In this document: positions 3,803 to 41,240 of the stretch, piece after piece
Position numbering within the stretch: the first letter of the stretch is position 1
Layout of the letters: each line of letters starts with the position of its first letter
DNA from: Ruditapes philippinarum
Lineage: Eukaryota
Length of the DNA stretch: 64,000 bases
NCBI RefSeq assembly: GCF_026571515.1
Contig: NW_026864865.1
Span: 62,001-126,000 of the forward strand
Direction: 5' to 3'
The notes under the pieces: generated by a model
The model's input: only the letters and a program-made list of their open reading frames with translations
The model's database searches: none
What the model was told of the DNA's origin: nothing
Made by a program: the position numbers and the translations under genes

Positions 3803-5108
3803 AACAAGAGCACCGCTAGGCGGAGCATTATATGCCCGAAAGTGTTTTTTTTTCTTTTCTAAGGATGAAGCATTTGTAAGACATTACATAAATTAAATAA
3901 AGTATTACCTCCTTCAAACAGCAATCCTCCTATAAAGTTTGAATATTGTGGGCCAAATGGAACTTCAGTTATGCTCTGGAAACTGTTTTTAGTTTTGAGG
4001 TAATAGCTACCTTGAACTTTGACCGTGTGACCCCAAAATCAATAGGGGTCTTCTACCCAATATGAACAATCATCCTATGAAGTTTCAACACTATGGGCCA
4101 AATAGAAAGTAAGTTATGTTCTGGAAACTTTTTTCAGTTTTAAAGTAATAGTGACCTTGACCTTTGACATTGTGACCCCAAAATCAATAGGGGTCTTTAC
4201 CCAATATGGACAATCATCCTCTGAAGTTTGAATATTGTGGGACAAATAGACCTTAAGTTATGCTCCGGAAACTGTTTTCAGTTTTAAAGTAATAGTGACC
4301 TTGACCTTTGACCTTGTGACCCCAAAATCAATAGGGGTCTCCTACCCAATATGGACAATCATCCTATGAAGTTTGAACACTGTCAGCCAAATGGAACTTA
4401 AGTTATGTTCCGGAAACTGTTTTCAGTTTTAAGGTCATAGTGACCTTGACCTTTGACCTTGTGACCCCAAAATCAATAGGGGTCTTCTACCCAATATGGA
4501 CAATCATCCTATGAAGTTTGAACACTGTCGGCCAAATAGAACTTAAGTTATGCCCTGGAAACTGTTTTCAGTTTTAAGGTCATATTGACCTTGACCTTTG
4601 ACCTTGTGACCCCAAAATCAATAGGGGTCTTCTACCCAAAATGGACAATCATCCTATGAAGTTTGAACACTGGCGGCCAAATGGACCTTAAATTATGCTC
4701 CGGAAACTGTTTTCAGTTTTAAGGTCATAGTGACCTTGACCTTTGACCTTGTGACACTAAAAATAAAAGGGGTCTTCTACCCAATATGGACAATCATCCT
4801 ATGAAGTTTGAACACTGTGGGCCAAATGGAACTTAAGTTATGCTCCAGAAACTGTTTTCAGTTTTAGGGTCATAGTGACCTTGACCTTTGACCTTGTGAC
4901 CCCAAAATCAATAGGGGTCTTCTACTCAATATGGACAATTATCCTATGAAGTTTGAATGTTGTGGGCCAAATGGAACTTAAGTTATGCTCCGGAAACCAA
5001 ATTGCTAACGGACGGACGGACAGACGGACGGACGGATAGACAGACGGACGGACGGACGGACGCCAGGGGGTATAACATAATATGCCCGAAATTCTTTCGG
5101 GCATATAA
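3803..5108 (-). mobile_element. Second, unrelated HINE nested in the first; about 8 x 145-bp tandem units
   Basis: subTIR TATATGCCCGAA at ~3829 and hairpin TATGCCCGAAattctTTCGGGCATA at ~5081-5105; (GACG)n at 5008-5062; terminal stem-loop GCACCGCTAGGCGGAGC; unit starts 4031/4176/4320/4465/4610/4755/4900; inserted in an A-run without TSD. Confidence 0.85.
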
Positions 5109-9790: not shown

Positions 9791-10280
9791 CTGTAAAAAT
9801 AAACGTGAAACCATATTATTGTAATGCGTACATTTGTTACAAGTCTAAAGAAAGAATGTAATAGTTAATTATTCTGATTGCATTTGAAATTATTGTATGG
9901 CAGGTGTTTTAAACCATGCATTTTCGCTGGTATATCAAGTATCGTTACTTTTTAGTATTTTCTTTTTTTAATATGATGAAAATGTTACGTTGGTTATTTT
10001 ACAAGTTAATATAAATTGATGATGATTATCTTGTCATAATAATTCTTCACGATGATTAATTAAATTTGTAATGTAAACCTGATAATAGTATTTGTATAGC
10101 AATACCTTATGTCTATATTATTCAATAAAAAAAGAAATAAATATATAACTATAAACTCGGTATTGCTATTTTCCTGTTTAGAGCTTATATAATTAGATAA
10201 CGTATATCATATACATTTTCATATCACTTTTAAACATAACTTTGTATAATCATGTGAAATTTCTAAATCGCAACATAAAT

Positions 10281-10503
10281 GAATTTTATGTGTCATAAAA
10301 TTATTTATATGCAAGACAACATAATTTCTTAATATCATTCACTTTTGTTTTCTGTAAATCCGCATACATCATATACACTGCAGATAGAGGTCCGCATACC
10401 GGAGTTTCGTTACCGACAAATAAACGGTGCATTTATCATGTTTATAATTAGCCTACGTCACTTCGCGTACCCCAGTGAACAAAGAAACTCGCATTTGCTT
10501 TTC
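10281..10503 (+). repeat. Ngaro terminal repeat A1
   Basis: Near-identical to 23960-24173 (few substitutions, one ~9-bp indel). Confidence 0.95.
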
Positions 10504-10718: not shown

Positions 10719-10813
10719 ATGCCAACAACAAAGGTCTTGTTATATGGTCATTCATTTGTGTCTCATTTAAAACTTTTCATTCGGAATGAACATGATCTTT
10801 CGTATTCATTTAA
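10719..10813 (+). pseudogene. Ngaro SGNH hydrolase, N-terminal part (MPTTKVLLYGHSFVSHLKLFIRNEHDLSYSF)
   Basis: ATG at 10719; block-I nucleophile motif G-H-S; joins in frame (SYSF-N-LDPAHY) to 17447 when the Kolobok and one TTAA are removed. Confidence 0.88.
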
Positions 10814-12308
10814 GGTACATCAAACTTGTGAATGTGCTACTCCTCAACATTAAATGGCAGTTGCTGAATTGCAAAATAGAGAAGAGTATTGAGTAAAAAA
10901 AGTTTAATTTTAATAAATATATAGGGATATGTCATCATTGGAGTAACTTATTTATTCAAAAATTAAAATATGACAGTGTTGCAAAAGTTTGAAACTGAAA
11001 ATTACACACATACTGCTATGTCAAAATTTGGTTTAATTACTAAGTATTAGATACAAATTCTTTCATAAACATTAAGTCAATATATCAAATTAGTGCACCC
11101 AAATGTTAAATTTCGGTTAAATAACCTCCTTTACGTATTCCAAACTTTTCACGTGCTTCGGCATATATTTTTGACCCGCCATTTTATCAAATGTGTCTGT
11201 TTTTTCGTCGTTTTTTCCCAAAGGATATTCTTCTTATGCTTCGCTTTTTTAAATAAATTAAAACTGATTAATATTCCCATGAACAAAAATATTCATACAC
11301 CATACCTAAATACACAGAATTTCATTTCGATCGCTTTATACCTGACATAGTAATATCTTTCTTGTATTTATTTACATTTTTCGGCTTTCTGTTGACCGCA
11401 TAACGAAAGGAAGTAAAAAATATTCATACACTGAAGTAGACCTGACCTGAAAGATCGGGTAATTTTGGCGCATATTAAGGAAAATGACATTTCTTTTATT
11501 GTTTTGTTTTCGTCTTTGTTAAAAAATATCAATATAACAAACGTATTTCAAATACACGCATTATATCATGGAACTTTGAACAATCGCGTACGTTCTTTTA
11601 ATTCCGTACAATTGGGCGGATATGGATTTCGTATGGTTACCCCAATGTCGTGCGCGGTACGATAACTATAGTTTGTTAGAATGGGTACCAACTAATTAAA
11701 CATGGCGGAATTGTAGACACGTTGTGGCGGAAAATCTTGTTTTCAACTTGTATTGAGTTATTACCGGTAAGATCAGATGTATTAAGTATAATTTATACAC
11801 TGGTACTTTATTCACTTTCTTTATTCCATAAATTGTTATACCGATCGGCCAAGTTGTACGATGATTTAGCATTTACAAATAAGTAACTTTCGTTTTCATT
11901 CAACAAAATGTAAACAAAAACAACAGGTTCTCGAATGCCCTGTAAAAACAATTTTATGAATTGTATTTTATTTCTTCTGAATAATTATGCAAGTGTAATA
12001 TTATAATTAAGTTTTGAAGGTAAGTAAGCCCGAAATCTGTATTGTTTTACAAAAATATTTTTCAAACTAATGAAGCGTGAAATGACATGAATGAAAGTGG
12101 ATATACAAGTAACGCGCTATGGTGTACTGATGTGCTCCAAATTCCTGGAATTTAATTTTTAAATATATTTTATGGAATTTATTTCAATTGTTGTGTCTGT
12201 GTATTCTTTAATTTGGAAATATTTTATACTTGTATAACTTGTGGTGAACATATAGCTTGAAAATAAAGGAAATATTGTAGTGGCACAAGAAAGTTTTAAT
12301 CCACCAGG

Positions 12309-14877
12309 ATGGGTAATAAAAGAAATCAGAAAGGGAAAAGACAAGTTTTTAATAAGGCCACTGGAATTCATAGTTTGAAATATAGAAGGAAAATTGTCAT
12401 TAAAGATGAAAAATTGAGAAGAAAATTTAGGAATATTAAACATGTGGACCCATTCTATATTAGGCAGAAAAAACAAGGTTTGAAATTTACACTTAGTAAA
12501 ATTATTATTCAGAGAGCTAGAAAATTCAAATGTTTGCTCGATAAAGAAAAAGAAAGACTGTATATAACATCATTGAAAGATAATTTAGAAGGTAGTAGAA
12601 TCATTAACATGCATAAACTTAAAAATCACATTTTAGAAATAACTTCACATGCCGCTCTATGCACTGAAGCTCACATGAAAGCCCTTTCAAATGACAATGT
12701 TATTGTCCTGGAAAGTGAGAAAAGGAACGGTTTTTATACCATCATCACCTGTAAATGCCAAGGATGTGGTAAGACATTTGAACTGGAAAATAGTGATAAG
12801 TTTGGATATACAAATATGGTTGATATCAATGTTCGTTCAGTTTGGGGTAGCATGGTAACAGGAGGAGGTTGCTCTTCGCTCAATGAGTGTTTTGGAAGTA
12901 TAGGAATTCCAGGCATTACTGAAAAAAAGTACTCTTCAATTGAGAATGAGATTGGACATATGTGGAAGTCCCTTCTTGATGAAGAACTTGTGAAAGCAGG
13001 TCAGGAAGAGCGTGCATTGGCAGAGGAAAATGACGAATATTTTCAAGGTATTCCAGCAATAACTGTTATATGTGATGGAGGCTGGAGTAATCGAAGTCAC
13101 AAACATAGCTACAATGCCATGGCTGGAGTTGCTGTCGTTTTCGGGGCTAGAACAAAGAAACTTCTGCATGTAGGTATCAGAAATAAAATTTGTTACATAT
13201 GTAGCCGTGCTGAGACTGTAAATGAACCATGCCACTAAATGCCTTAGATCTAATTTAGAACGTTTAATATCTGAAAAGCCACATTATAAAGGAAAAGGTA
13301 AACTCATGAGAAATAACATTAGAAGAATTTGTTCTGGAGTAAGATGCGCTATTGTAATGCGAAGTTCTGAACCCAATAAAATGACAGCAATTAAAAAACT
13401 TAAACAGGATATACGGAATGCCGGGAGACATGTCCTTGGCTTACATGATTTATGTTCCACAGATTTTTGTAAAAATAAGGAGAAAGATACAGACATAACA
13501 AAATCAAATGATAATAAAATGGAAAATAGCAATAATGATGAAGAAGATATCATAATAAGCCAATGCGAGTACTGGACTGATTCTGTAAAAAAATATTCTG
13601 AAAGTGAAATTGAAATGTTAAGAAAGGGCGGTAAGACAATATCACCGAAAAATTTTAATATTGAAGAGTTGTTAAGAGACATTTTTCTATTTCTGAATCG
13701 TCTATCTGAAAAGGCAAACCGTTTGATTGGTAACTTTACAAGTAATTTAGCCGAGTCCTGGATGAGCATTAAATGTAAATTTGAAGGGGGTAAAATGTTC
13801 AATAAATGCTTCCGTGGTTCATTTTACGCAAGATGTTATGGTGGAGCGTTGAGGTCTTTGCTAGGTCCAGCATGGTCACCACAAGTTTACAATCAACTTA
13901 CAGGTAAACGCCCTGACAGAGTTTTTATTAACACTTATAGACAAAGGTTTGTACGCTACAGATGTACCAAACGTGCCAAAGGTAGTGAAATAAACAGGAA
14001 CAAAAGGAAATTGAAGAAAATGAAAGCATCTGTTGAAAGCAGCAGTAAGAAAGCAAGAAAAGAATATGGCGAAACTGTGCTGCAAGATACAGCTGATATC
14101 AGTCCATCACAATTAAAAAAGGAATGTGATACGTTTTATAAATCAACAATATCTACATGCAATAGTAAATTAATTGAACAGCATACACGTGGTCAGTCAA
14201 GTAATATTAACTGGTTTGCTGAAAGAAAGAAAAGACTCACAAGTTCTGTATTTGGAGAAGTGATGTCAAGATCACAAAATAATAACCGTCCCAATTTAGT
14301 GAAAAGGCTTTTGTATTCCAACTTTAAAGGAAACATGTATACTTTGAAAGGGTTAAGTGAAGAGGATAATGCAAGAATTGAATACATTAATTTGAAAGAA
14401 AAAGAAGAAAATCTTAAATACAAAATTGATATTCCGGGTCTAATTGTTGACAAACTGAATCCTTATTTAGCAGCCTCCAGCGATGGTGTCGTAGTTGGAT
14501 CCAAAGGTCCTGAAGGTCTCATTGAAATTAAAACTTTATTACAGAACAAAAAAGCAATGATCAAAGAATCAGCAGAAAATGATAAAGCCTTTTGTTTGTC
14601 AGTGCAGAATGGCATTATTCAACTGAAAAAAAATCATAAATATTTTTATCAAATACAAGGTCAGATGAATATTATGAATTTCAAATGGTGTGATCTAATA
14701 ATTCGAAGAGTAAATCCACATGATATGTTTATTCAGCGCATATACTGTGATACAGAATTATGGAGAAATGTTATGATTCCCAAATTAAAGGCTTTCTATT
14801 TCACCCACATGCTACCTGAATTAGCAGTTCCAAGACATGGTACTCTATCTGGAATAAGAAAACCTGAATTACCATGG
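12309..14877 (+). pseudogene. Kolobok DDE transposase fused to a YqaJ/lambda-exonuclease (PD-(D/E)XK) domain, main exon; internal deletion and frameshift at ~13225-13235
   Basis: CxxC motif (CKCQGC), first Asp in ITVICDGGWSNRSHKHSYNA, RNKICYIC, NHATKC, Glu in TSNLAES; exonuclease motifs TRGQS..W..ER..RLTSS, PYLAASSDG, LIEIK, YFYQIQGQM; donor TGG|GTatgt at 14878. Confidence 0.88.
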
Positions 14878-15058
14878 GTATGTTCCCCATAAATGTAATA
14901 CTCATTTTTTATAATAACAATGTTTTTGTTTTTTTCAGCATATTTACATGTGCTTACATATATATCATCATATATAATAAATTACCATGTATAATAATAA
15001 AAATATATTTATTGTAACTTGTATCTTTTGTGTAATCCTTCATTTTTATATTTTACAG

Positions 15059-15216
15059 TTTTGTGGTACATCCTGCAAGAGATCAGAGAAAAAGAACTGT
15101 AAGAGAATTGAAGGTGACAAATTGGACTAAAAAGACTCACATACTCAGATTAAGACAGACACAGATATTTACATTGCAACCCCATTAATACCAACACCAA
15201 CACAATCAAGTAAAAG
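15059..15216 (+). pseudogene. Kolobok ORF linker exon (one in-frame TAA at 15128)
   Basis: ttttacAG acceptor and AAAG|GTgatt donor; phase 0 to 2 exactly bridges the exonuclease exon and the Tudor exon. Confidence 0.65.
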
Positions 15217-15943
15217 GTGATTTATTTTAATGTATATATAACTATATATAATTAAGATCTTTAAAGAATTCTGTTAAATAGGAAATATTACCAATTTGCA
15301 CTCTTTTAACAGCTGTAAATTTGTTTAGGAAATACCAATATGCAGAAAACATGAAAGTGTTCTTTAAAGGCAGGTGGTCTTAAGTAACAGGTAATTTTGT
15401 TTCTTACATTATGGAAAGGGACAGTTGAAATGTACTTTTTAAGTACAGTTGGTATCTAGCAGTATTAATGTTTAGATTGCTCTGTATACATGTATAAAGA
15501 AGTATTTTTAAATTTTTAATGATGTTTAGAATTTTCAATATACCCTTATTTGAATTTTATAATTTTTGAATGAAGCTGTTATATTAATTTATGTTCATGT
15601 ACTTTTTCACTGTGTACTGTAACACAAATGTTGACAAAATATTGTGCATTACATGCAATCCTTTCCTATCATGATGGTTATAAACATATATTATTGCCTT
15701 TATACACTATAAGCAACTGTAAATTGTTCTCAAATTAACTTTTGTTTACTATTTTTAAACATTAATTTGGCATAACATCCAAATATAATTTGGCATAACA
15801 TCCAAATAAATGAGCAAATTTAACTTGCAACTTTATTTTAAGTTTAAAAATGGCTAAAAATTATAAATATTTATTTCAGATTTTAAGTGCCTTCAACATG
15901 TATTTGAAAAGGATAGTTGATATTTTTTTATACAAATTTGCAG

Positions 15944-16178
15944 ATCAACACGTTTGAGAAAATTAAAATTCCTTGGAAGGAGAATCAACCACCAGTGGAC
16001 AGAATCAGATGGCTCTCTGAATTGGTACAAAGGCACCGTGCTTTCTGTTTCTTCTGGAAAAGACGGAAATCCTGATGCAGTATATGAGGTGCTATATGAA
16101 GGCGAAGACGCGTCATATGAAGTAGATTCTTTGATCAAAGACTATAATGAAGGCACCTTAACTTTCATAGATTTGTAA
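15944..16178 (+). CDS. Kolobok terminal exon encoding a Spindlin/Ssty-like Tudor domain
   Basis: tttgcAG acceptor, phase 2; FLGRRINHQW.E.DG...WYKGTVL...YEVLYEGED..Y...LIKDYNEGTL resembles the Spin/Ssty repeat pattern (G.R(I/V).H.W....W.G.VL...Y.I.YDG....Y...L..DY..GDL). Confidence 0.75.
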
Positions 16179-16730
16179 TGGTATACTTTATTTCTCTTCC
16201 AATTTACATTATACCATGTACTGTATGTTTTTATATTTAAAAATTGATTTTAAAAAATATTTAAATAACATTATGCATAATATCTTTTTAATGTTAACAT
16301 CATATTACAACAGCTTTGAATGTAATTAATCCTATATAATAATTTACAGTTTCTGATTTTATGGTTTTTATGTTTAATTAATTTTGCAAGAAGGTCATGT
16401 TTCAATTCATTTTAATGAATTATTACAAGAAGGAATATTATCCTGCTTATCTTATGGATTATTGCAGTAAATTTTTTTATAAGTAAGCCATGTCCATAAT
16501 AGTACACCATACTTAACCTTGCACTACTTTTGTGTACATGCTATGTAAACATTGGACTTAGATAATGCTGTGTTTACTGGCCTTATTGGAATATAAATTT
16601 TCAATTGATAAATAATTTTTTCAGGTAATGGAGATTCAGTGTCACTAAAATAGATGTTACTTTAAAAGTTTTCATTCATCATATCACATATTTATCATTG
16701 GAAGGAACATTATTTTGACATACAAGTTAC

Positions 16731-17229
16731 TAAGGGTGTAACGGTTTACCGGTATACCGATATATTGCAATATGAAAAAATAAATTTCGAACCGCGGTAC
16801 GATTTTTGGAAAACCGGTATTTTATAAAAATCATCATTTTCAATTAATTGCCTTCTAATTTTGTACAAATTCACATAAAATCTTTAATTGGCAAATTTTG
16901 TTGGCACCAACGTAAGATAAAAGTATCCGACAACTAGTACACTTGAAAGTCAATAAGCGGCCACATAATTTACATAAGCCGCCCAGATGTGAAAGGTCAC
17001 ACGCGACTAGTTTTGTTGATCAAATTGTGTGACACTACTTTCTATTTATTCCTTACATTTTTATTAAGTTTCTACTAAAAATATATACATATAATAATAA
17101 TATATAAATGTTACTCCATCTTTACATCAAAACATATACACGACAATACGTATTGCAATATATTGCAATACGCTTCAGCAAAATGGCAATATATTGCAAT
17201 ACAGTTTTTGCTGTATTGTTACACCCCTA
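16731..17229. mobile_element. hAT-type MITE inserted in the Kolobok 3' region
   Basis: 8-bp TSD CAAGTTAC at 16723-16730 and 17230-17237; TIR TAAGGGTGTAAC / GTTACACCCCTA; subterminal TATTGCAATA repeats. Confidence 0.9.
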
Positions 17230-17446
17230 CAAGTTACATGTGCTGCAAACTGATTCAGGTAAGGCTTTTGCTTTTATTTTATTTTTTTTTTATTTTTAGG
17301 CAATGTAACAGCTTCTTTATAGGAAAAGGATTAATGCCTCAACATTTTCCTTTTGAAATGTACCTCACAATACTTCAGTTGAAAGTTTTAATTTTTGACC
17401 TAAAATTTTCAACAAAACAATATGGCTGCCATTTGATGCACCTTAA

Positions 17447-17956
17447 TTTGGACCCAGCTCATTACATGGTGCAGTTTTCTGCATTCCCAGGATCAACCGT
17501 GTCGAAATTGGATCGAAGCAGCTTGTTGGAAATTGTGAAGGATTTTGAACCTGACATTGTGTTTTTAATGATAGGAACGTGTGACCTTTATCAAACAGGC
17601 AGTTACCCAGAACGTATAGCACAGGACATCTGCACTCTAACGAACAACTGCACAACGTGTACAAAGTGAAATATGTGGTCGTTCTACAAACATTACACAG
17701 AATACCCCCACGTGTTTTTTTTAAATATCCGGTGGACTGCATATCGTTTAACAGTCATGTTGACATATTCAACCATCATTTACATTCCCATTTGCCAAAA
17801 GGGTACTCCAGATTGTTGCGATTAAAAGGCTTTTGGACAGAAACAAGTCAACAGAGGGTATTTGCTGCAGACGGCACACACTTATCTCCCCTAGGGAACA
17901 GAAAACTGTACAACAATGTTAGAGCAGCCATTATCAGTGTAACAAAGGATTTATAA
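17447..17956 (+). pseudogene. Ngaro SGNH hydrolase, C-terminal part (one frameshift at ~17645)
   Basis: PG block II (FPGSTV), PDIVFLMIGTCDL block III, DGTHL block V followed by the G..KLY helix. Confidence 0.88.
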
Positions 17957-18092
17957 ATCAAGATACGTATATATTCCATACACTGCTAGATTTTCACTTT
18001 AAATGTCTTATCTCTTAAGGCTTATATTGTCTTTATCAAATCATTAATCATTAGGATTTGAAACTGTATGGCAATAGCTACATGTACATAGA

Positions 18093-18230
18093 AAATGTTT
18101 ATATTTTCTAGAGGCTTGCATACATGTACTAGCTTAAAATTCCACAAGGAAAGTTTATCATGTAAATGTTTATATTTTCTAGAGGCTTACATACATGTAC
18201 TAGCTTAAAATTCCACAAGGAAATTTTATC
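18093..18230 (+). repeat. Two-copy ~71-bp tandem duplication
   Basis: aaatgtttatattttctagaggctt.catacatgtactagcttaaaattccacaaggaaa.tttatc occurs twice. Confidence 0.9.
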
Positions 18231-18983
18231 TCATGATCCGTATTTTTCAGTTTAAGTATATGCATATTTTATTTCATTTCAGTGCAGTCATACAGCATTT
18301 ATTTATTATATCTTCTGATGTTCTAGATTCCCTCAAGGATTTATTTTACCTTTGGAATCTAATGATCCAGAACTTTTTAGTTAAGCACTATAGTAGGAGT
18401 GTTTTAGACGGACAATATTTCAGTACAGTTTATAAATTTGATGAGCCAGATTTTGCCCTTGGGCTGGTCCGATGTTCCAATATAGTAACAGATTATGCCT
18501 GATGGCGATGATTACATTTACTCTATAGTAACGGAGTATGCCTTATGGCGATGATTAACACTATAATAACAGTGTTGTGGTGCAGTATTTATAACAAGTG
18601 TATATATTTTTTGATGATCCAAATCAATTGATAGGCAATTTTTTCCTAATTCGGTCTGATGTTCTAAAAATGTTCTACTTTCTATTACAGGGTATATGTA
18701 TAATGTACATAACTCAAGAAATATAAAATATAATTATCAAATTTCGGGAACGACAAACATATATTAAAGTTAATATAATAATTTACATTAATTGTCATTG
18801 TTTTTACACAAATATCATATGAATCAATTGATACATCTTTGTAGTGGTACTGCTTTTTACTACTTATCAAATATACTGTATTATACATGAATATTCATAT
18901 AGTATACCTAAAGAGGGTTTTCTTTAATAGTCTTATAAGATATAAATTTGTTCTTTGTTTTAATTTTTTATAAATTTTTGTAG

Positions 18984-20090
18984 GTAAAACGGACCCGGTC
19001 AGGCATGAAGGCTAGTACAGCAGCCTCTGATAGCCAAGCTCAGAAAAGAAAATCAACTAAAATACAGACAAAACTGGGACAGAGAAACTCTTTCTCTACC
19101 AATGTTAAATCGCATTTAAAAACTGGAACTAAAATCGGTACAATTAATAGAAACAGAAGACCACCCCTCCCAGAAAGAAGGCTCAGAGTAAGAACCAATC
19201 AATGCCGGAAGACCCCACGGAAAATGATATCTCAGATGAAGTTGACCAAGAATCCTCAACTTTCTGTGATGGTTCAGATTCAGACATGGATGATGTCACT
19301 TTTAGTCAAATAACGGCAAATCACACAAATAATTTTTTTCAAAATGGTGGGTATGATGGCACTCTTCTAAACACGCCCATTTCTACCCCAATTTCCCCAC
19401 AGATTAACAAAAAATTAAAGAAAAAAATTTGGTCTGACACATACATTGATATGGCAGACCTTCTACCAATGCAAACCTCATCCACCAATACCAATCAATT
19501 TACGCTTCAAATAACGTAAGCCTACCCCCTCTCACAAACCCAGAAAATTTTTCAAAATTGATGATTGGACAACTGCCTTTCTACGATTTGTAGCTGTTTA
19601 TTCGAAAAAATTTCCATATTTAACAGCTGCACTGATGAAATATGCCGAAATAGTCAGGAATATAGCAACCTGTCGACAAGGACTGGCGTGGCAAACTTAT
19701 GACACGCAGTTCCGATTACTGGAATCCCAGATGGGCATGCCTTGGGATACGATGCATTACGAACTTTGGTTAAAAGCATGCACCGATCCACCTCCTTACG
19801 TACATTCAAATCCCCGGCCCTTTCGTTCAGAATTCTCATTAAATAGACACTGGAAAAAACCTAAACCTTCCCAACCCTTGTCAAAGTTTTGGCCAAATAC
19901 ATGCTGGCCTTACAATAGACAAGACTGCAGATCAACTAACTGCACATTACCCCATGTCTGTGGTTTCTGTAAAGGTACCCGTCATGCAAGTCAGTCCCAA
20001 TATCGAAACAGATCGCATGCAGCTCAATCCCTCCTCGGCCAAAACCAAGGGAAACAATCCAATTCACCAAACCACAGTCTGTCAAATATG
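18984..20090 (+). pseudogene. Ngaro gag-like ORF (frameshifted)
   Basis: KKKIWSDTYIDMADLL, DWTTAFLRFVAVY, LMKYAEIVRNIA...W.TYD.QFR...W.....ELW, Cys/His finger CWPYNRQDC...C...HVCGFC...H. Confidence 0.85.
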
Positions 20091-21654
20091 TACAAAAACA
20101 AGCTTCCAACACCCATTAAAATTCGACCCCTCATTTCCTTACAACAGGGTAATAGTGACATGAACTAGATAAAAAATGGTTTCCAAAAGGGGGTTCATTT
20201 AGGTTATATAGGCGATAGGTCAGCATGCGATATTAGAAATTTGAAATCTTGCATGGAATATCCAGAAATTGTAGAAAGAAAACTGGAAGCCGAGAAAAAG
20301 CATCACATAATTGTTGGTCCATTTGAAGTATCTCCCTTCGATAATTTAAAAATTAGCCCAATAGGAGTTGTTGAAAAGAAAACACCAGGTCAATACCGTC
20401 TTATTCATCATTTAAGTTACCCAACAGGTTTCTCAGTAAACGATTTTATAGATCCTTCGTTATCAACAGTAAGTTACACATCATTTGATGATGCAGTCAA
20501 CCTCCTCATTAAGTTGGGCCCTGGTTCCCTGTTCAGTAAAACAGATATTGCAGATGCCTATAGATTAATACCCATTCATCCGGATGATTATAGCTTGTTA
20601 GGCTTCAAATTCAAAGACCAAATTTAATTTGGCAAATGTCTGCCTTTGGGAGCTTCCAGCAGTTGTGCCATTTTCGAACGGTTTAGCTCTAGCCTTGAGT
20701 GGATCGCAAAGAAGAAATTGCTAATTCCACATATAATACACATTTTGGATGACTTTCTCATTATGGGCCCTCAAAAGACAAATACATGTAAGCTCCATTT
20801 AGATAATTTTTTATCCATGTGTAAATCGATTCGGGTACCAATTTAATCTGAAAAGACCCAACAACCATGTAATGTCATTACATTTATGGGCTTAGAATTA
20901 GACTCTGTGCAAATGATGGCCAGACTACCACAAGATAAGCTTATGAAATTAAGACAGTTACTATCAGTTTATATCAATTGTAGGAAAATAACTCTTAAAG
21001 ACATGCAAAGCTTAATTGGTCTTCTAAACTTCTTTTGCTATGTAGTCACACCAGATGTTTTCTTAGAAGATTAATTGATCTCACTAAAAAGGTCATTAAA
21101 CCAAACCATCGCATTACACTTAATGCTGAAAGCCGAAAAGATATTAAAGCTTGGCAAATATTTGTGGAATAATTAATGGAAAAAAATTACTGCTAGATGG
21201 AAAATGGTTGACAGATGAACAATTAAGTTTGTTCACTGATGCATCCGGAAGTTTGGGGTTTGGAGCAATATTTGGCAACATTGGTTCTATAATTTTTGGC
21301 CTGAAAGTCTATCAAATATGGCCATTACCTATAAAGAAATGTTCCCTGTAGTAATAGCCATTGAAGTTTCGGGGGCAAATGTTATGCCATAAATGCCTTG
21401 TTCTTCATTTTGATAATGAAGCTGTTGTATATATTTTAAATAAACAAACTTCCAAAAACCCCTTAGTAATGCATTTAGTTAGACGCTTTGTATTACTTTG
21501 TATGAAATATTATATTCTCATTAAAGCTGTCCATATCAGTGGTAAATTGAATTATCTCTCTGGTCTTTTATCACGTTTACAGATAAACCAGTTCAAAACA
21601 GTGGCACAACAGCACATGGATCCGGATCCCACAGACGTGTCCGATCTCATTTAG
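20090..21654 (+). pseudogene. Ngaro reverse transcriptase / RNase H (stops and frameshifts)
   Basis: LPTPI, GPF..ISPIGVVEKK..YRLIHHLSYP, KTDIADAYR, CLPLGASSS, ILDDFL; RNase H LFTDASG, DNEAVV, HISG..N...LSR. Confidence 0.93.
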
Positions 21655-21669
21655 ACCAAACGGTTCTAG

Positions 21670-22569
21670 ACCTCTTGAATAATTCTTTGTCAATTTCAAC
21701 CAAGCACTCATATGAGCATTCATTAAAACATTTTTTTCACATTTATACAAAGTACCTACCCGGGAAAAGCACCTTTCCCTGTCTCTGAGTATAAAACTGC
21801 TCAATACATAACATACTGTTTCGAAGAAGGTTATCGCTAAATTACTATACGCACTAAAACATTAGCCATTGCTTACTTGCACAAAATCTATAAATATCAC
21901 AATCCTACAGACTCATTTGTCATTTCGAAAATGTTGTATTCAATAAGAACAACCTCTACCCCGTCTGACAGTAGGCTTCCAATAACTATCCCTATTTTGA
22001 AATCAATTATCCAAGCCCTCGACACAATAGTGCCCTCATCATATGACAAGCTCTTGTACAGGGCTATTTTCATAGTTTCTTTCTTTGGCCTCTTAAGGAT
22101 TGGTGAAATGACACTCACACCAACAGGTTCTACTAATGTCATACAAAGTAATAACCTCACTTTCCACAGATCAAAGTCCACCTATAAATACAATAAAGCA
22201 ACGATTTATATGTCAAAGTACAAACATTTTGATGGTAAAACCTCCACAATTCTACTGAAAAAGAATACCTATCTTACCATTTGTCCGGTTAACGCATTAA
22301 AAAGTTACCTAAAGAGAAGGTCAGCTCGGCCTGGTCAATTATTCATATGTAAAAATGGCCGTACATTATTCAGTTCTACTTTTCGCTCATTGTTAAGAAA
22401 CTGTGTTGAACATATAGGTTTGGATCCAATAAAATATACACCTCACTCATTCAGAATAGGTTACGCCACACACGCTTTCAACTGTCAATATACTCAATTA
22501 CAAATCCAGAAATTAGGCCGCTGGAAATCCAATGCTTTCAAAGGATATATTCGCCCTGTCAATTTATAA
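21670..22569 (+). pseudogene. Ngaro tyrosine recombinase (catalytic domain open from 21877; N-terminus disrupted)
   Basis: DSRLPIT, FFGLLRIGE (R), CPV, HSFRIG (HxxR), GRWKS...Y (W, Y). Confidence 0.93.
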
Positions 22570-22644
22570 TACGAAAAAGTTTATGCCATAAAAAAAGCTA
22601 GTGCCATCATACTACCTACAGTGATTGTTTTGTTGTTAGCAATA

Positions 22645-23310
22645 TCCTGACTGGCTAAGGCAGCAGGATATTTAATATTGAATGTTAAGTAATACTGACA
22701 TTGATTACTTGTGTTCACAGTTACCTGACTGGCTGAGGCAGCAGGAAATTTGTACATATGAACTTTTTTCAACATAAAACTTTTACTCTTATAAACTTGT
22801 TCCTGACTGGCTGAGGCAGCAGGAAATCTGTACATATGAACATTTTTCAACATACAACTTTTACTCTTATGAACTTGTTCCTGACTGGCTGAGGCAGCAG
22901 GAAATCTGTACATATGAACGTTTTTCAACTTGCAATTTTTATTCTTGTAAACATGTTCCTGACTGGCTGAGGCTGCAGGAAATCTGTACATATGAACGTT
23001 TTTTCAACTTGCAATTTTTACTCTTTTTAACATGTTCCTGACTGACTTAGGCAGCAGGATATTTGTACGTATGAACAATTTTCACAAATTATATCTATTA
23101 CTCTAATCATTTATATTTCCTGACTGGCTTAGGCAGCAGGATATCTGTACATATATGAAAAGTCTTCCAATGTATCATCCTTTTAACTCTAATTCATAAT
23201 TTTCTGACTGGTTAGGCAGCTATATATCTGTACATATTTATGACAGTTAATATTTTTACATTTAACTGCTTGTTATTCATATTTTCATGACTGGCTTAGG
23301 CAGCAGGATT
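22645..23310. repeat. Nine-copy array of a 24-bp imperfect palindrome (TCCTGACTGGCTNAGGCAGCAGGA) with 54-60-bp AT-rich spacers
   Basis: Core starts at ~22646, 22724, 22802, 22880, 22958, 23037, 23119, 23203, 23286; period 78-84 bp. Confidence 0.93.
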
Positions 23311-23796
23311 TTAGAACATCAAAGTGTTAATTGATACTTTTACATTTTGTTCCTCATACCTTTTAAAATCATTTTTCTAAATAATCTGATCTTAATTGTT
23401 ATACAGGACTAAGTTTGGCAGAAGGCATAATTGTTAAAATATAGTTTATAAACAACAAGCATTTTATACAAATTTTATGTAAGTAAGACTACAATTTTAC
23501 TAAGTGTATATCTAAGATCAGAACAAATTATGTTTGACTCCGACAGCTAAAGCTACAAGATTATATATATTTCATGTTACATTCACTGACTAGCCTAACT
23601 AACAGTTGGCTGTTAATATTTGAGTTATACAACATATTAAAGTTAATTTGTCTCATGTTTCTTAAATCTAATATGGCCAATTTATTTTTATTACTTTGTC
23701 AATTTTATTAACAATGTTTACATTATGTATATACTACTACCAAAAACACAATTTTGTCTGGCAGATATGGGTTAATTTATTAACAACCCATTTATG

Positions 23797-24173
23797 GCGG
23801 TTTTTACCTGCCAGATATGTCGAAAAATTAACACATTCTTATTCATATTATACTTATGGCTTAATAAAGCCCAAAAATCAATCTTATAACATGGTTGTTT
23901 CTTATTTCCCAATACAAGCTTCAATTGAGTTTTTGGTGGTTGTCGCAGTTAATATAAATGTATTTTATGTTTCATAAAATTATTTATATGCAAGACAACA
24001 TAATTTCTTAATATCATTCACTTTAGTTTTCTGTAAATCCGCATATATCTTATACACTGCAGATAGAGGTCCGCATACCGAAGTTTCGTTACCGACAAAT
24101 AAACGGTGCATTTATAATAAGCCTACGTCACTTCGCGTACCTCAGTGAACAAAGAAACTCGCATTTGCTTTTC
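23797..24173 (+). repeat. Ngaro internal B1-A2 junction repeat
   Basis: B1 23797-23959 abuts A2 23960-24173 (..tataAAT|Gtattttatg..), followed by ccagcctcccaccac. Confidence 0.93.
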
Positions 24174-24314
24174 CCAGCCTCCCACCACAATTATAAATTG
24201 CATTACAGTCTTGCAAATAAATAGTTTTGTAACTTCATGCTAATTTCTTATCTAGTCATATACTGATTGTTAATATTGATTTATCATGTTCTTTCTTGTT
24301 GTTATTTGGTGCTT

Positions 24315-24477
24315 GCGGTTTTTACCTGCCAGATATGTCGAAAAATTAACACATTCTTATTCATATTATACTTATGGCTTAATAAAGCCCAAATAGTAAT
24401 CTCATAACATGATTGTTTCTTATTTCTCCATACAAGCTTCAACTGAGTGTTTGGTGGTTGTCGCAGTTAATACAAAT
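24315..24477 (+). repeat. Ngaro terminal repeat B2
   Basis: 163-bp direct copy of 23797-23959. Confidence 0.95.
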
Positions 24478-24587
24478 AAATGTGTCAGATTTTAATAATG
24501 TTTTATGTTAAATAAAGGCTTTATTTGTATTTGCATAAGAGTACCTTAAAAGATATATATAAAACTACATTTAAGTTTTATACATAC

Positions 24588-24646
24588 CTGAGACATTCGC
24601 CATCTATATTTAGATTTTTGCAAACCAGTTTTCTGTCAAGTAATGG
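24588..24646 (-). CDS. Host gene exon, start of SPRY (PLLDRKLVCKNLNIDGECL(S))
   Basis: tttgcAG acceptor, CAG|GTatgt donor; 59 bp, phase 0 to 2; splices to 9790 giving IDGECLSY, like the SPRYD3 'VDGD.LSY' motif. Confidence 0.82.
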
Positions 24647-25208
24647 CTGCAAATGAAACACATAATGTATTGGTTAACGACAATTTAATGAACATCTGCT
24701 ACATCCATATTTGAAAACCTTTAAACAAAAAATTATACATGTGACATCATTTATTTAATAGCAATATCCTTAATTTTACCGTTATCTAACATAGGCAACA
24801 TGTAAATAAAACAAACATTGAATTGAACCTTCAAGTTACACCCAGTCGCTTCTATGGTGCCTCATAGACCACAGAGCCATGCAAATTTAATGTCGTTATA
24901 TGCTGAAAGAACCTGCGCTTTTATTGCCAAAAGTGGCTAGCGGCATTTTTCAGTTAATAACACAACGCTAACACTATTTATTTTTATATCTAATGCCCAA
25001 ATCGTCAACAAGATATTTCAAACACCGACGCATGAAAATAATCAATATGATTTTATTTATTTATCACAAAATAAAAAAGTTGGCGTCAATTATTGTTTAA
25101 TTACCGTAAAAATGTGTAATTATACTGTAATTACATCTTTACATGCCACTTAATTTCATAGAGCATATTTCATAAGAAAAAAATCAGTTCATGTATTAAA
25201 TAACTCAC

Positions 25209-25276
25209 TTGAAGCTTTTGGGGCGCTACTGCCTTCATCGTATCTTCTCTTTTACATGCCACTGCCAATTCTTTCT
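25209..25276 (-). CDS. Host gene linker exon (KELAVACKREDTMKAVAPQKLQ)
   Basis: aatAG acceptor, GTgagt donor; 68 bp, phase 1 to 0, bridges the B-box exon (phase 1) and the 24646 exon (phase 0). Confidence 0.65.
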
Positions 25277-27914
25277 CTATTACAAATACACGTTTCAAGA
25301 TTAGTGAAACTTTCTTTTAGACATATGTAAACTGTTTTATGATGATATTTATGATTTATGATATTAAGCTTACATCGAAACGATTAAAGAACATTAATAT
25401 TACTAATAAAAACTGAATATATTTATAATGGAAATTCATTGTTATTATCACCCGTGTTAGTTTAAATGAATATTAAGAAAGCTACATTATAAAGTATATA
25501 AGGACACTTTATGTGGTGAATTCTAAAAGGACTATCAATTCACCCGAAACAAAAGTGTTCACTAAATATTCAATTTACTGAGAAATGTTATAACATACCA
25601 ACATTTTTGGTTCTTCTTTCACTCTGTGCATGCTATATAATAAATAAAGACGCTATGTAAAATGATAATTGTTAGTATTCATCATCTTACTAGAATGACT
25701 TTTTAAGTTTAAAAAGAAAATGGTTGCGACAATTGTATTCACAGCTTTTTCAAGACAAATTCTTACCAATTACTATGGAGCAGAATTTGGGTATTTATTC
25801 ATTTGACTACTTGTTGTTTTCATTTGCTTAAGTTTAAATCATATTCCTACAAATTTGATTCATCTGTAAGTCAAAGTTCTTTACTTAAATATTTATTTAT
25901 TCTTTTTTACTATGTTTATAGTGATTATTATTTGTTTTCTATGTCCTAGCTGTAAAATTCTAGCGCAAAATCTTAGTGACGGGAGATAACTCATGTATCG
26001 CTTCGGTATTTTCCGTGAGCACAAGGTGTGAGGATACAATGCTACTTATTTAATCCAAGTTTATAGGTAGCACACCACATTAATGTAAGCTACAGCTTCG
26101 AAAGGCCAGGGAGGATTTCTTGGATATAGTGAATATTCTGGATTTAACCTTTTACCCCATGAGCATATTGTGAAAAATGGCAGTTTTCATTGAAAAGCCT
26201 CCAGTTACAAATTCAAACTGCTATGAAACTATAAAAAAATGCTTCAATACTGATGAAACTTGGCACAAATGTTAACTGGACCATGACCTCAGTAACAGCA
26301 TGCTCAATCGTAAATTTTCTGTTACCATGGCAACGGGCAACGTCTCAAAATCACTATTTTGCATTGTTTTTTTTTTCCATCAAAACTGATTTCAAAGTGC
26401 TGCAACTTCTCAATGAATTAAGATAGAGTAAAAGGCTTTTCAGCGTCGGTTACTAGTTACCCTGAGATCGACCTGAGACCGTGTTTAGCCTGACACATGT
26501 CCAAAGTTTTCTTGGCGATGAGGGTGACTACCGCCACCTTCAAACCCCCAAACAGAAGGGGGCACATCAACATTTCTAAAATAAAAACAGTGTTGGGGGC
26601 CTAAATAGGGCATTTTGTCACTGTTTGAGGCCTCAAAAAGGAAGGGGGGGGGGGGCAAAAAACCATCAAAATATGTCTGGTTGTCTTTTAAGTGCATTTT
26701 CAGCATGAAATTTGTTTTTGTGACATCTAATATGATCACTTGCAAATTCGAAATCATGGCCAGAAATCACATGCTGTTGATTATAAATGTCAAGGTCGCC
26801 ATTTTTTGTAAACATTGCTTTTAAACAGCGTGCACGGTAAAAACAAAACATTTTACAGGGGGGTACAAACTATTAGCAGTAGTAGAAAATCTAAAAGGTT
26901 GAGCACCAGTTTTTTTGTGATATTTTGCATGTAAAGGGAGTTGCTAAAACAGAGACGGTGTTCCTTTAGCCTGTATATTTGCAGGTCTTTTTTTGCCAGA
27001 GGGACGAAATGTGTTGTTTTTGGTCTCGGGCCACTGTAGATTTTGGGACTCAACGGAATGAATAATATTGCAACTTTTCTGACTGCCTGCCTATTGCAGA
27101 TGGGATGATTTCTTTGTAGATTTGCAATCTTATGTCATATATGTTCTCAACAAAATGTGTTTTCTTTTTCCAGGTTGTGTAGTTTGGTATCAGAATTATT
27201 AGCCGTATTGACGGCAGAAACTTGAAATTAACTGTGGAGTGCTACCCTGGATTTTGTGGGGTTTTTTAAGAGCATATTTCAACGGTTACACCGTCAGAAA
27301 TTACGGACTTGTACGGAAATATTGGTGCCCGGCCAGATGTATAAATTTAAATTTCAATGTAATTTCGTATTCGTGTTATTGCAGTTCGTATTCGTCTAGG
27401 TGCATTCGTATAGATTTTATTTCATTGTTATGTAACCCAATTTGTATTATTAAAAGGAAGGATGTTCAAGATCATAAGTTAAAACTAAATTATTCAAATT
27501 GAAAAAGAAGAAGTATGCAACATAAAATCTAATTACGTAGTTTAAACAAGAAGTAGAAACAATTGATCCTTGCATTCTGCAGTATCAAACTACAAATTTT
27601 TAACTGGCAATTAAAAGTAGCAATTAAACTTGTTTAAATCAATTTAAATTTATATGATTATAGATAAGAATTCAATGAATACGAATATAAATTAGATAAA
27701 TAGAAATTGAAAGATAAACAGCGAATAAATACCCAAATTCTGCTCCATATATTACCAAGAACAACAAAACCCGTCTTATCATATTGACAAAGATTATGTA
27801 CCCTAGAAAAAGTTCTAGTAATAGAACTGATAAAAACATAAACAAGTTCATGATTATACATCTTTGCATATAACTAACCTTATTTTAAATACTTGTGATA
27901 TTACGAAATGAATA

Positions 27915-28047
27915 NNNNNNNNNNNNNNNNNNNNNNNNNNNNNNNNNNNNNNNNNNNNNNNNNNNNNNNNNNNNNNNNNNNNNNNNNNNNNNNNNNNNNN
28001 NNNNNNNNNNNNNNNNNNNNNNNNNNNNNNNNNNNNNNNNNNNNNNN
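27915..28047. other. Assembly gap
   Basis: Run of 133 N. Confidence 1.
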
Positions 28048-34488: not shown

Positions 34489-36895
34489 ATGATGTTAATT
34501 GAACAGTTTATGTTTTAGTTGTATATGCAATGAAGCATTAGTGTAAATCAAATTCCTTCAAATAAAGTGTCTCACAAACTGATATGTTCACATAGATAGT
34601 TAAAATATTCTTGATGTAGTATCAATGGTAAAATACGACCTCGTGTATCATTATATTGATTCAAATGGTGCGTATTTTTAAAACTTCCGGGTTGATACTC
34701 TATTTTATATTCACATTTGTTCACGTTCATATTGTTTATATCAGAGCAATACTGTAATTTTAAAAACAGAACTTTTGCAAGAACTTGAAAAGTTATAATT
34801 TGAAATCTTATTAAACATAAATATAAACAAGAGGGCTAAGATCGCTCACCTGACCCATCGAACTCATCCGAACAATTAACTAGACAATGTGCAATTTTAT
34901 TGAACATTGATATAAACAAAAGGGCCAATATGGCCCTATATCGCTCACTTGACCCATCGAACTCATCCGAACAATTACGTAGACAAACATTCGTGAGTCA
35001 AAAAAATGCGACCACTAGAGTGTTAACAAGGATTATCCATATTTGAACAGTGTGACCTAGTTTTTCCCCAGGTGACCCATATTCGAATTTGACCTAGAAA
35101 TCATCAAAACAAACTTTCAGACCAATTTCCAGGATACCTTGATCAAAACGGTAGCCACTACAGTGTTTACAAGATTTTTCTATTTTTAGCTCCTTTGACC
35201 TAGTTTTTCATCCGAGATGATCCATGTTCGAAATCATCCGAAAAAATACCTACGCAAACATCATGACCAAGTTTCATGATAATTGAGTAAAAAATGTGAT
35301 CACTATAGTGTTAACAAAATTTTTCTATTTTTAGCTCCTGTGACCTAGTTTTTCAAGTGAGATGACCTATGTTCGAACTCATCCGAGCAATTACCTAGGC
35401 AAGCATCCTGATTAAGTTCGATGATATTTGAGTCAAAATTGTGACCACAAGAATGTTAACAAGGTTTTTCATTATTTGGGCAGTGTGATCTAGTTTTTAA
35501 CCCCAGGTGACCCATATTCGAACTTGACCTAGAAATCATCAAAACAAAATTTCATCCAATTTACAGGATATTTGGATCAAAACAGTAGCAACTAGAGTGT
35601 TATCAAGATTTTTTTTAATTTTTAGCTACTGTGACCTAATTTTTCATCCGAGATGACCCATGTTGAAACTCATCCGAGCAATTACCTAGACTAGCATCCT
35701 GACCAAATTTGATGACAATTGAGTCAAAAATGTGACCACTAAAGTGTTGACAAGGTTTTTTCTATTTTTATCTCCTGTGACCTAGTTTTACATCCGAGAT
35801 GACCCATGTTCGAACTCATCCGAACTAATGTCTTGACAATCATCCTGACCAAGTTTTATGACAATTGAGTCAAAAATGCGACCGTTCTAGTGTAAACAAG
35901 GTTTTTCTATTTTTAGCTCCTGTGACCTAGTTTTTCATCCGAGATAACCCATGTTCAAACTCATCCGAGCTATTACCTAGACAAGCATTCTGCCCAAGTT
36001 TGATGATTATTGAGTTGAAATGCGACCGCTAGAGTGATAACAAGTTTTTTCTATTTTTAGCTCCTGTGACCTAGTTTTTTCATCCGAGATGACCCATGTT
36101 CAAGGCCATTTGAGCTTTCAAGTTTAATGACGATTGAGGCAAAAATGTGACCACTAGAGTGTTAACAAGGTTCTATTTTAGCTCCGGTGACCTAGTTTTT
36201 CATCCGATATGACCCATGTTCGAACTCGTCTGAGCTATCTACTAGGTAAGCATCCTGACAAAGTTTGATGATGATTGAGGCAAAAATGTGACCGCTAGTG
36301 TTAACGAACAAGTGTGAACGGGCGAAAGACGACGGACGATGGACGAGCTAGCTCAGGCGGGCTAAAAAGACAACCAACATATCAAGTAATTTGATAAGAG
36401 ATTGGATATATAAAGAACATGATCATTGTCTATCAATTGAAATTAATTTGTAACAGTTATAACAAAATTTACTTCGGTACTTACTCAGTATATAAACATA
36501 CGAATAACTAAGCCTGCTTTGTAGGAAAAGTCGTTGTAGAGCTTAATAAGGCCAACAACAACACTAAGTATATACCTGTCGCATAATAAGTTTAAATAGC
36601 TAGTTTATACATCGATTTTTCGGCGTTAACAATTATACATCAACTAAATATGTTGAATATAAATCACTGATATAACTTAAGCCTTTAGAGCGAGCGAATG
36701 CTTATAGAAATCGCTGATAAAACTTTGCTAAACTTTGTTTTTTAAAGGGTACATATGTTGTTTTTTTATACTTTCGTCCTATTTTTATGACGATATTGTT
36801 ATCCTGAACTGATTATTTTGTGTTATAAACAAACGTCTGTTAAACTAACACATTATCCGCATACTGTCATCATCGGCCAAAGGTTGTTATAATCG
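34489..36895. repeat. Copy 1 of a locally duplicated non-coding segment (split by a HINE)
   Basis: 34489-34790 plus 36374-36895 are colinear with 41258-41855 plus 42172-42420. Confidence 0.85.
34825..36368 (-). mobile_element. HINE of the same family as 2927-7115, reverse orientation, about 9 tandem units
   Basis: aacaa..GGGCC..GGCCC..TCGCTCAC end, ~146-bp units (gtgacctagtttttcatccgagatgacccatgttcgaactc), (GACG) microsatellite, GAGCTAGCTCAGGCGGGCTaaaaa end. Confidence 0.85.
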
Positions 36896-40437: not shown

Positions 40438-41240
40438 TTTTATGCACCCCCCCCCCCCTTTTCGAAGAAGATGGGGTTTATTGTTTTGCTTATGTCGGTC
40501 GTTCAGACCACATGGTTTCCGCTGGTTATCTCAAAAAGTCTTCATATCTCACGATATGATTGGTAATAAGTAATAAATGACACCTATTGATTCTTGGGTT
40601 ACTAGGTTAAAGGTCACAGGAGCCTTAAATGTCATAATGGTTTCCGCTCATTATCATGAAACCTATTTATCACAAAGTCTTCATATTTCACATACTGGTT
40701 GGTCATAGATAGAAGATGACCCCTATTGATTTTGGAGTCACAAGGTCACAGGCACCTTATATGTCAGAATGGTTTCCGCTCATTATCTTGAAATCTATTT
40801 ATCACAAAGTCTTCATATTTCACATACTGGTTGGTCATAGATAGTAGATAACCCCTATTGATTTTGGGGTCACTAGGTCACAGGGACCTTATATGTCAGA
40901 ATGGTTTCCGTTCATTATCTTTAACATTATTTATCACAAAGTCTTTATATTTCACATATTGATTAATCTTATTCAGTAGATGACCACTAATGATTTTAGA
41001 GTCACTTGTTCAAAGGGCAAGATAGATCACAGGTGCCTTAAATGTCAGAATGGTTCCGTCCATTATCTTGAAAACTATTTATCTTATAGTCTTTATGTTT
41101 CAAATATTGATCGGGTATAACACGTAGATGATTCCTAATGGTTTTTGGGTCACTAGGTCAAATGCTAAGGTCACATGTCAGAACGGTTTCGGCTCATTAT
41201 CTCGAAAGTATATTAACTTTAAAGTCTTCATATTTCACAT
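40438..41240 (+). mobile_element. HINE (third family) with ~132-bp tandem units, 3' truncated
   Basis: ttttatgc.ccc..ttcgaagaaga.gggg start, gtcggtcg microsatellite, repeated atggtttccgctcattatc...gggtcactaggtca. Confidence 0.75.

Follow-up and report, generated by a model that had tools for sequence, protein, structure and literature searches.

The whole 64-kb stretch of DNA analysed here, referred to below as the window, contains a decayed Ngaro retrotransposon with the order A1-SGNH-gag-RT/RH-YR-array-B1-A2-B2 (Table 1). Apart from the upstream position of its hydrolase, the element agrees with the definition of Ngaro in the available text of PMC9210276 and PMC3783388. Its direct repeats are split (A1...B1-A2-B2); gag, RT/RH and the tyrosine recombinase (YR) lie on one strand with internal repeats 3' of YR (intact relative, L050); there is no methyltransferase domain, and the end of RH overlaps the start of YR. 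A domain scan of the 565-aa L050 pol gave RVT matches only. The Ngaro assignment made in an earlier sequence-only reading of this DNA is thereby upheld. Alignments place the catalytic residues of YR at R86, K128, H202-x-x-R205, W228 and Y236, and within its aligned piece the window gag retains 7 of 8 zinc-ligand positions. Among named proteins, those of bivalves come closest (Mercenaria, 50%; Mytilus, 38-39%), and sequencing runs labelled as mollusc contain part of the stretch, which makes a bivalve host probable.

Contigs of two sequencing runs pass from the end of A2 into an A1-type flank, and loose ends at 24474/24475 resemble the left flank, that is, an empty target site. The element flanks (10250-10271 and 24478-24600) are themselves repeated, with empty-site contigs at a depth of about 670 in run X5, and the target sequence resembles the B/A junction of the element; a target preference of the element is possible. 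The nested transposon, which lies outside the main finding, has 11-bp near-perfect terminal inverted repeats, a Mutator-like PF20700 transposase and a YqaJ nuclease domain, and is presumably a Kolobok-type DNA transposon. Elsewhere in the window, a pair of perfect 27-nt inverted repeats 1.9 kb apart (25774-25800 and 27723-27749) probably delimits a non-autonomous DNA transposon, and arrays of 132-156-nt repeats were seen outside the element at 3537-7072, 35002-36305, 40610-41162 and 60244-60553.

Table 1. Features of the Ngaro element and of its array of predicted hairpins (window coordinates).
Feature	Position	Strand	Remarks
Split direct repeat A1, left element end	10272..10503	+	92% identical to 23951-24173
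SGNH/GDSL hydrolase ORF, 5' piece, upstream of gag	10719..10814	+	ATG, GHSF motif
Nested DNA transposon	10815..17441	.	TTAA-flanked, 6.6 kb, splits hydrolase
SGNH hydrolase remainder, frameshifted	17442..17956	+	PF13472 E=0.002; tblastn to other Ngaro SGNH
gag (ORF1), broken	19151..20168	+	3' end encodes CCCH + CCHC-type zinc fingers
RT/RNase H region	20169..21620	+	interrupted by stop codons and frameshifts; no methyltransferase region ahead of YR
Tyrosine recombinase, open C-terminal part	21841..22569	+	PF00589 E=9e-7
Hairpin copy 1	22646..22667	+	bulged A at 22650
Hairpin copy 2	22724..22745	+	bulged A at 22728; Pumilio-type TGTACATA at 22751
Hairpin copy 3	22802..22823	+	bulged A at 22806; TGTACATA at 22829
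Hairpin copy 4	22880..22901	+	bulged A at 22884; identical to copy 3; TGTACATA at 22907
Hairpin copy 5	22958..22979	+	bulged A at 22962; one upper-stem mismatch; TGTACATA at 22985
Hairpin copy 6	23037..23058	+	bulged A at 23041; private loop variant at 23045; Pumilio motif mutated
Hairpin copy 7	23119..23140	+	bulged A at 23123; TGTACATA at 23146
Copy 8, decayed hairpin	23203..23223	+	bulged A at 23207; TGTACATA at 23229
Hairpin copy 9	23286..23307	+	bulged A at 23290; one lower-stem mismatch
Predicted single-copy stem, inner hairpin + TGGCG, left edge of B1	23756..23812	+	
Split direct repeat B1	23797..23959	+	94% identical to B2
Split direct repeat A2	23951..24173	+	92% identical to A1
Split direct repeat B2, right element end	24315..24477	+	

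As in the window (10719-17956), an SGNH hydrolase with its own start was observed upstream of gag in three relatives (L050, 287-913; L070, 3-665; L071, 559-1230), and in these three the SGNH-gag order is intact. Of 10 elements inspected in the array-bearing branch, 4 thus have the hydrolase before gag; the contigs of the remaining 6 begin within about 1.3 kb of gag or are incomplete. At 22 loci with SGNH after YR (L007-L009, L011-L016, L018, L019, L022, L026, L027, L044, L056, L059, L060 and L062-L065) the hydrolase has no evident start codon, and a polypyrimidine tract with YAG was seen by eye ahead of it, which suggests that it is expressed by splicing. A polypyrimidine-TAG stretch at 18960-18985 of the window, directly before a start-less N-terminal gag frame, is a possible splice acceptor. 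Between SGNH and gag there is a second small repeated hairpin, GCC-N4-GGC (window 18481-18557; L050 1145-1161, 1223-1239 and 1612-1628). A structure scan that was run without a control, and had evident false positives among its matches, gave a predicted single-copy stem enclosing an inner hairpin and TGGC(G/A) in both Ngaro branches: in the window, in L050 (6316-6320) and in L002, L003, L012, L020, L030, L052, L053, L057, L058, L060, L062 and L064. In the window and in L050, B1 starts inside TGGCG or at its end. The motif resembles the TGG that opens a tRNA primer site, and the stem is a candidate priming signal.

The array begins 76 nt 3' of the YR stop codon and comprises nine 22-nt GC-rich cores, eight of them near-intact. 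Successive bulged A residues are 78, 78, 78, 78, 79, 82, 84 and 83 nt apart, which bears out the nine cores at a 78-84-nt period behind YR described in the sequence-only reading; nine cores are indeed present, but copy 8 is degenerate, lacking one base of the loop and having a disrupted 3' arm (E=1.6 with the RNA model), and copies 5 and 9 each have a stem mismatch. The GC content is 0.45-0.68 in cores and 0.18-0.25 in the 56-62-nt spacers. Parsimony counts on an NJ tree of the units give the cores 9 changes over 22 columns and the spacers 102 over 56 columns (p=1.5e-7). As that reading implied, the core is still more conserved than the spacer when composition is taken into account, both at GC-majority sites (7/15 versus 25/11, p=4e-5) and at AT-majority sites (2/7 versus 77/45, p=1e-3). 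Copies 2-7 alone gave 3/22 versus 43/56 (p=3e-4, parsimony); with copy 8 placed one base out of register, the values were 17/22 versus 99/56 (p=4e-4). Spacer 1 has 29-52% identity to the remaining spacers and spacers 2-5 are mutually 84-95% identical, both in line with the earlier description, and spacers 2-8 are alignable duplicates of one another. The core pattern with up to five mismatches has no further occurrence in the 64-kb window, and exact matches in viral contigs numbered 0. Unit number differs between copies of the element: run X5, from another sample than the best-matching run, contains a joint 22742-23059, a 94% identical contig of depth 220 that extends from YR to copy 2, inclusive, and a second contig spanning 23027-23430. 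Given these contigs and the joint with its different unit number, the array is a family feature of variable length.

YR-anchored scans yielded 51 relatives, 49 of them metagenome loci and 2 genome loci; from assembly G001, 15 of 46 further YR matches were taken, including two duplicates. All six relatives in the window's YR clade bear 2-6 hairpin copies at the same place, so that the array is present in other family members, as the sequence-only reading had anticipated. They represent three further families (L001 with L030 and L031; L002 with L006; L003) with 41-55% YR identity; the hairpin lies 41-579 nt after the YR end in all six loci, in L003 as a variant. Copy spacing in the relatives is irregular (45-295 nt) and the spacers are unalignable. 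A repeat search that takes no account of pairing arrives at these sites as well.

The predicted hairpin consists of a 4-bp stem, a bulged A, a 3-bp stem and a 6-8-nt loop ending in A(G/A)G. We aligned 28 copies (7 from the window, 26 distinct), leaving out window copies 4 (equal to copy 3) and 8 and one bulge-less copy each from L002 and L006. A pairing descriptor had a share in the selection of the copies, so that the percentage paired is inflated. The bulged A is invariant across all 28. RNAalifold returned seven pairs, six with two-sided changes. For the 9-pair structure on the 26 distinct hairpins, which are related and not independent sequences, the covariation score was 0.549, compared with 0.200 for shuffled and at most 0.14 for slid controls. 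Pair 7:29 occurs as four Watson-Crick types and pair 13:24 as three, and two-sided changes are seen both between families and between copies within one family. Sequence is kept at UG-A, at the closing G-C and at the loop AGG, the loops reading UUUAGG, UUAUAGG, UUUUAGG, UGUUAGG, GCUNAGG and UGACWAAG. Wobble pairs appear as G-U on the + strand four times and as C-A once, a difference that is not significant and leans to the transcript strand.

The proposal that the core is repeated as a hairpin is thus supported by a predicted stem with covariation in relatives. Its companion, a dyad DNA site, is not supported: the hairpin is asymmetric with an invariant bulged A, and its copies within one element differ yet keep self-pairing. 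The A/G/T base once taken for the symmetry centre does vary, but it is a base of the 7-nt loop and no dyad centre; loop sequences of relatives do not preserve the inner G/CT-N-AG/G symmetry. The compensatory flank pair is present (A-T in copy 1, T-A in copies 3-5), but this column pairs in only 10 of the 26 distinct hairpins.

A covariance model (R1) recovers the 28 training sites and window copy 4, and in the remaining 45 of the 51 loci it has no match at E<1. Searches of G001 and of the 15 loci taken from it gave no significant match either, so that the tail hairpins of G001 are analogous in shape and of another motif. Rfam searches gave nothing above gathering in window 16000-28000 and the six loci. 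A Smaug/ZCCHC14-type CNGGN pentaloop was considered and rejected: CUGGC occurs only in window copies, the closing pair is broken in 15 of 26 hairpins, and the covariation score is 0.142 versus 0.549.

The distribution of these tails was examined on quick SH-aLRT trees (no bootstrap) of the YR of unlabelled relatives, with 42 rows in the main tree, near-duplicates and most fungal-like loci being left out and L043 filling 25-27% of columns. The seven hairpin-bearing rows form one clade with a support of 99 (98 in a tree with protein-only rows). A wider clade of 19 rows (support 92) has no hydrolase after YR, and 15 of its 19 tails carry repeated, hairpin-folding motifs that are family-specific, mostly with a 5'-side bulge and often with a loop ending in AG/G or UG/G; the fold in L057 is weak. 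L004, L005, L010 and L052 of this clade have no tail repeat; in the first three a single GC-rich multi-stem motif with GGCGCC-like arms was observed 50-110 nt after YR, instead of an array. Among host windows, 4 of 59 contain a repeat and 0 of 59 a hairpin repeat, and any repeat was found in 5 of 15 tails that follow SGNH, 8 of these 15 being shorter than 300 nt. Contigs of a single assembly, G001, carry six different tail motifs. This bacterial assembly, labelled Sedimenticola, has 46 YR-profile matches, the best of them on animal-type Ngaro contigs, which are host contamination of a public genome (L050, L051, G001). L050 is a head-to-tail tandem with a period of 7137. YR searches of viral contigs returned 0 relatives.

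All 128 of the 128 homologues of Gag keep its CCCH and CCHC ligands, which do not vary across the 129 proteins aligned, and the fingers are weakly similar to those of Muscleblind and to zinc knuckles. Ngaro elements with SGNH after YR have the same zinc fingers, without an array after YR. The Gag core (L071 2273-2863) was modelled with a pLDDT of 90; its best fold match had a Z of 5.1, no Foldseek match reached E<=0.001 and no known capsid fold was matched. Retroviral Gag rows were at E 0.5 or worse, and 6rwg, at E=0.3 by sequence, matched in the zinc-finger region only; we do not take these as evidence. In view of this fold result, a Gag particle is only putative. The core family itself is large (15,199 homologues at E<=0.001) and has no structural assignment.

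Folding predictions for the window depend on the span allowed. At a span of 150 the local hairpin has P<0.05 for copies 2-9 and neighbouring copies pair mutually (at equilibrium, for spans of at least 80 nt), the all-local fold having -143.8 kcal/mol versus -166.3 kcal/mol with inter-copy pairing. At spans of up to 70, copies 1-7 fold locally (0.62-0.99) and copies 8 and 9 do not. The in-context local hairpins of L002 and L003 are stable (0.70-1.00) and those of L030 mixed (0-0.69). Since neighbours are predicted to pair at equilibrium, local hairpins in the window would rely on co-transcriptional folding or on protein binding. The analysis covered 4 of 24 listed runs. RNA-seq was sparse: one run gave 159 reads out of 12.9 M and another 104 out of 7.4 M, on both strands, and 72% and 50% of these reads, respectively, continue into unlike sequence. 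At this very low depth there were no defined RNA ends or splice joints in the array. The RNA-seq is compatible with read-through of scattered copies and is not evidence of an element transcript.

Besides the hairpin, six of the nine units hold a Pumilio motif, UGUACAUA, which the sequence-only reading did not mention. Its form TGTACATA, a Pumilio element used in reporters according to the available text of PMC4947167, sits 5 nt 3' of hairpins 2-5, 7 and 8, is mutated in copy 6 and is absent from copies 1 and 9. It has changed less than the remaining spacer in copies 2-8 (1/8 versus 58/48, p=0.0012; p=0.07 with all nine copies). Six copies of UGUAHAUA thus lie on the sense strand in the 3' UTR; on the + strand of the tail, at least one is present in each of the four families and in five of the six relative loci. 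Other tails have such a motif in 0 of 7 cases in one set and in 4 of 8 in another. Against a background of 33 such motifs on the + and 12 on the - strand of the 64 kb, the tail motif is suggestive only as a signal.

The element resembles Ngaro, in the available descriptions, in its DIRS-type order A1-ORFs-B1-A2-B2, its gag, RT/RH and YR, its SGNH hydrolase and its lack of a methyltransferase. Unlike amphibian Ngaro as described there, with the hydrolase after YR, it has the hydrolase 5' of gag, and a conserved hairpin array takes its place after YR. Neither hairpin arrays in Ngaro tails nor a 5' hydrolase are described in the literature searched, whose available text also included PMC6681497, PMC8547959 and PMC4157794. 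In plant Tat/Ogre/Retand LTR elements, arrays that differ from family to family lie in the interval from the coding region to the 3' repeat (PMC3305785, PMC11963269); structure, though not sequence or spacing, is kept across families in the arrays described here, whereas the accessible part of PMC11963269 mentions no conserved structure. The units also recall the lncRNA NORAD, in which Pumilio elements (PREs) stand beside short hairpins in repeated units (PMC4947167, in part), but NORAD is a host gene with 17 PREs in units of ~300 nt, and here a mobile element has six in one family and one in relatives. Palindromic repeats with intervening spacers are reminiscent of CRISPR as well. The sequence-only reading had set CRISPR aside, rightly: the array is not a CRISPR because spacers 2-8 are duplicates of one another, and the hairpin is asymmetric and lies in an animal genome. 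No cas genes were found among the eight ORFs scanned (YR, Mutator and YqaJ only), nor any Rfam CRISPR repeat in 16000-28000.

A closer likeness is to the operators of ssRNA phages (MS2 TR, PRR1, GA), hairpins of ~20 nt with an unpaired purine in the stem and a purine in the loop, as in the structure predicted with covariation here. The phage operator depends critically on the unpaired purine of its stem and on an adenine in the loop (PMC3561173, in part), and many degenerate copies of a packaging signal aid phage assembly (PMC4751978, in part). By analogy, the array likely works like the operator and packaging hairpins of phage coat proteins. Phage hairpins are read by the element's own protein, and we propose the same for Ngaro Gag. 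There is no homology between the two, and, unlike phage operators, the copies here belong to a eukaryotic retroelement, are clustered in its 3' tail and accompany a Gag core without a capsid-fold match.

What reads the array can be approached from the copies themselves. A double-stranded DNA site needs no self-complementarity in each copy with different letters, and the signal would therefore be read single-stranded. The kept UG-A, closing G-C and loop AGG suggest a protein reader. Because six family-specific motifs coexist in G001, presumably in one host, this reader would be encoded by the element. The same diversity weighs against host RNA-binding proteins, since families within one assembly use different hairpins. 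On that account, Pumilio and UAG readers like hnRNP A1 or Musashi would bind the hairpins and UGUACAUA and set stability, translation or germ-cell localisation; in a variant, host proteins would shield the 1.9-kb 3' tail, or the tail would act as a Pumilio sponge as in NORAD. Both hnRNP A1 and Musashi read UAG, and 21 of the 28 loops end in UAGG; this account also draws on the placement and better preservation of TGTACATA beside six of nine hairpins, on the UGUAHAUA motifs in all four families and on the NORAD units (PMC4947167, in part). Yet one motif per kb of tail is weak against the background, relatives have one PRE per 2-6 hairpins, window copies 1-5 and L003 lack a loop UAG, and TGTACA is also a plain palindrome. 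We consider host readers, the main rival to a reader of the element's own, somewhat unlikely.

The remaining accounts fare worse. In a neutral minisatellite, slippage and unequal exchange seeded on a GC-rich palindrome would homogenise the core and leave the AT-rich spacers to decay. Such events are the probable source of the regular 78-nt period, and the clear duplication of units 2-8, the varying unit number and the frequency of 3' arrays in plant LTR elements (PMC3305785, PMC11963269, in part) fit this account. In relatives, however, the hairpins are dispersed irregularly between unalignable spacers and show two-sided differences, which speak against it because homogenisation makes copies alike, not covarying; for the motif, this quite improbable account is largely refuted. 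It is highly improbable that YR reads the array, as a dyad or as an attC-like hairpin with an extrahelical base on single-stranded cDNA. Integron attC sites are recognised by a YR, and the array lies directly 3' of YR, but stems of 7-9 bp would be short for two recombinase arms, the element ends at the B/A junction at least 640 nt away, and no joints or ends in the mapped reads and contigs fall at hairpins except changes in unit number. DIRS-1 does make single-stranded cDNA, which the available text of PMC7192593 describes as antisense; as the wobble pairs here lean to the + strand, RNA is likelier than single-stranded DNA. To processing or splice sites (CUGAY as branch point, UUUAG/G as 3' splice site, or an array cut into ~80-nt RNAs) we give hardly any credence. 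YUGAY with the bulged A occurs in three of four families, and Ngaro elements with a 3' SGNH bear polypyrimidine-YAG at this position (by eye); against this, only 7-9 nt without a pyrimidine tract separate the branch A from the AG, the consensus is missing from L003, no ORF lies downstream, spacing in relatives is irregular, no RNA joints or ends were seen at low depth, and no Rfam ribozyme matched. All other explanations together have an equally slight chance.

We therefore return to Gag. The array is probably a functional and apparently undescribed RNA cis module of Ngaro, and our favoured reading, held tentatively with not quite an even chance, is that its hairpins are multivalent sites for the CCCH-CCHC Gag of the element, marking the RNA for ribonucleoprotein assembly. 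Tandemly amplified in the 3' untranslated tail, the predicted RNA hairpins would fold locally during transcription and act as RNA of the + strand. A protein would read the bulged A and the loop purines, and this protein would be the element's own zinc-finger Gag, whose binding would select the element's transcript to be assembled into ribonucleoprotein and reverse-transcribed. Where a Pumilio-type motif adjoins the hairpin, in six units, it may, more weakly, add host repression or germ-cell control. A broader scenario, which we regard as unlikely, is that one branch of animal Ngaro moved its hydrolase 5' and that the freed tail became a multivalent array of family-specific bulged hairpins, co-evolving with the CCCH-CCHC fingers of a Gag without a capsid fold. 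The array would then be a code by which YR retrotransposon RNA is recognised as self, linked in the window's family through Pumilio sites to germ-line RNA granules.

Hairpin variants supported by covariation, together with matching zinc-finger proteins, make cognate versus non-cognate binding directly testable, and if binding holds, they would be orthogonal hairpin-protein pairs of MS2 size, usable as RNA tags. RNA selection and priming in DIRS-order retrotransposons are largely an open question, and the primer of DIRS-1 is stated to be unknown in the available text of PMC7192593. If the broader scenario is true, the array and the TGGCG structure at the edge of B1, the latter as a candidate site of priming, would together provide the first cis map of Ngaro replication.
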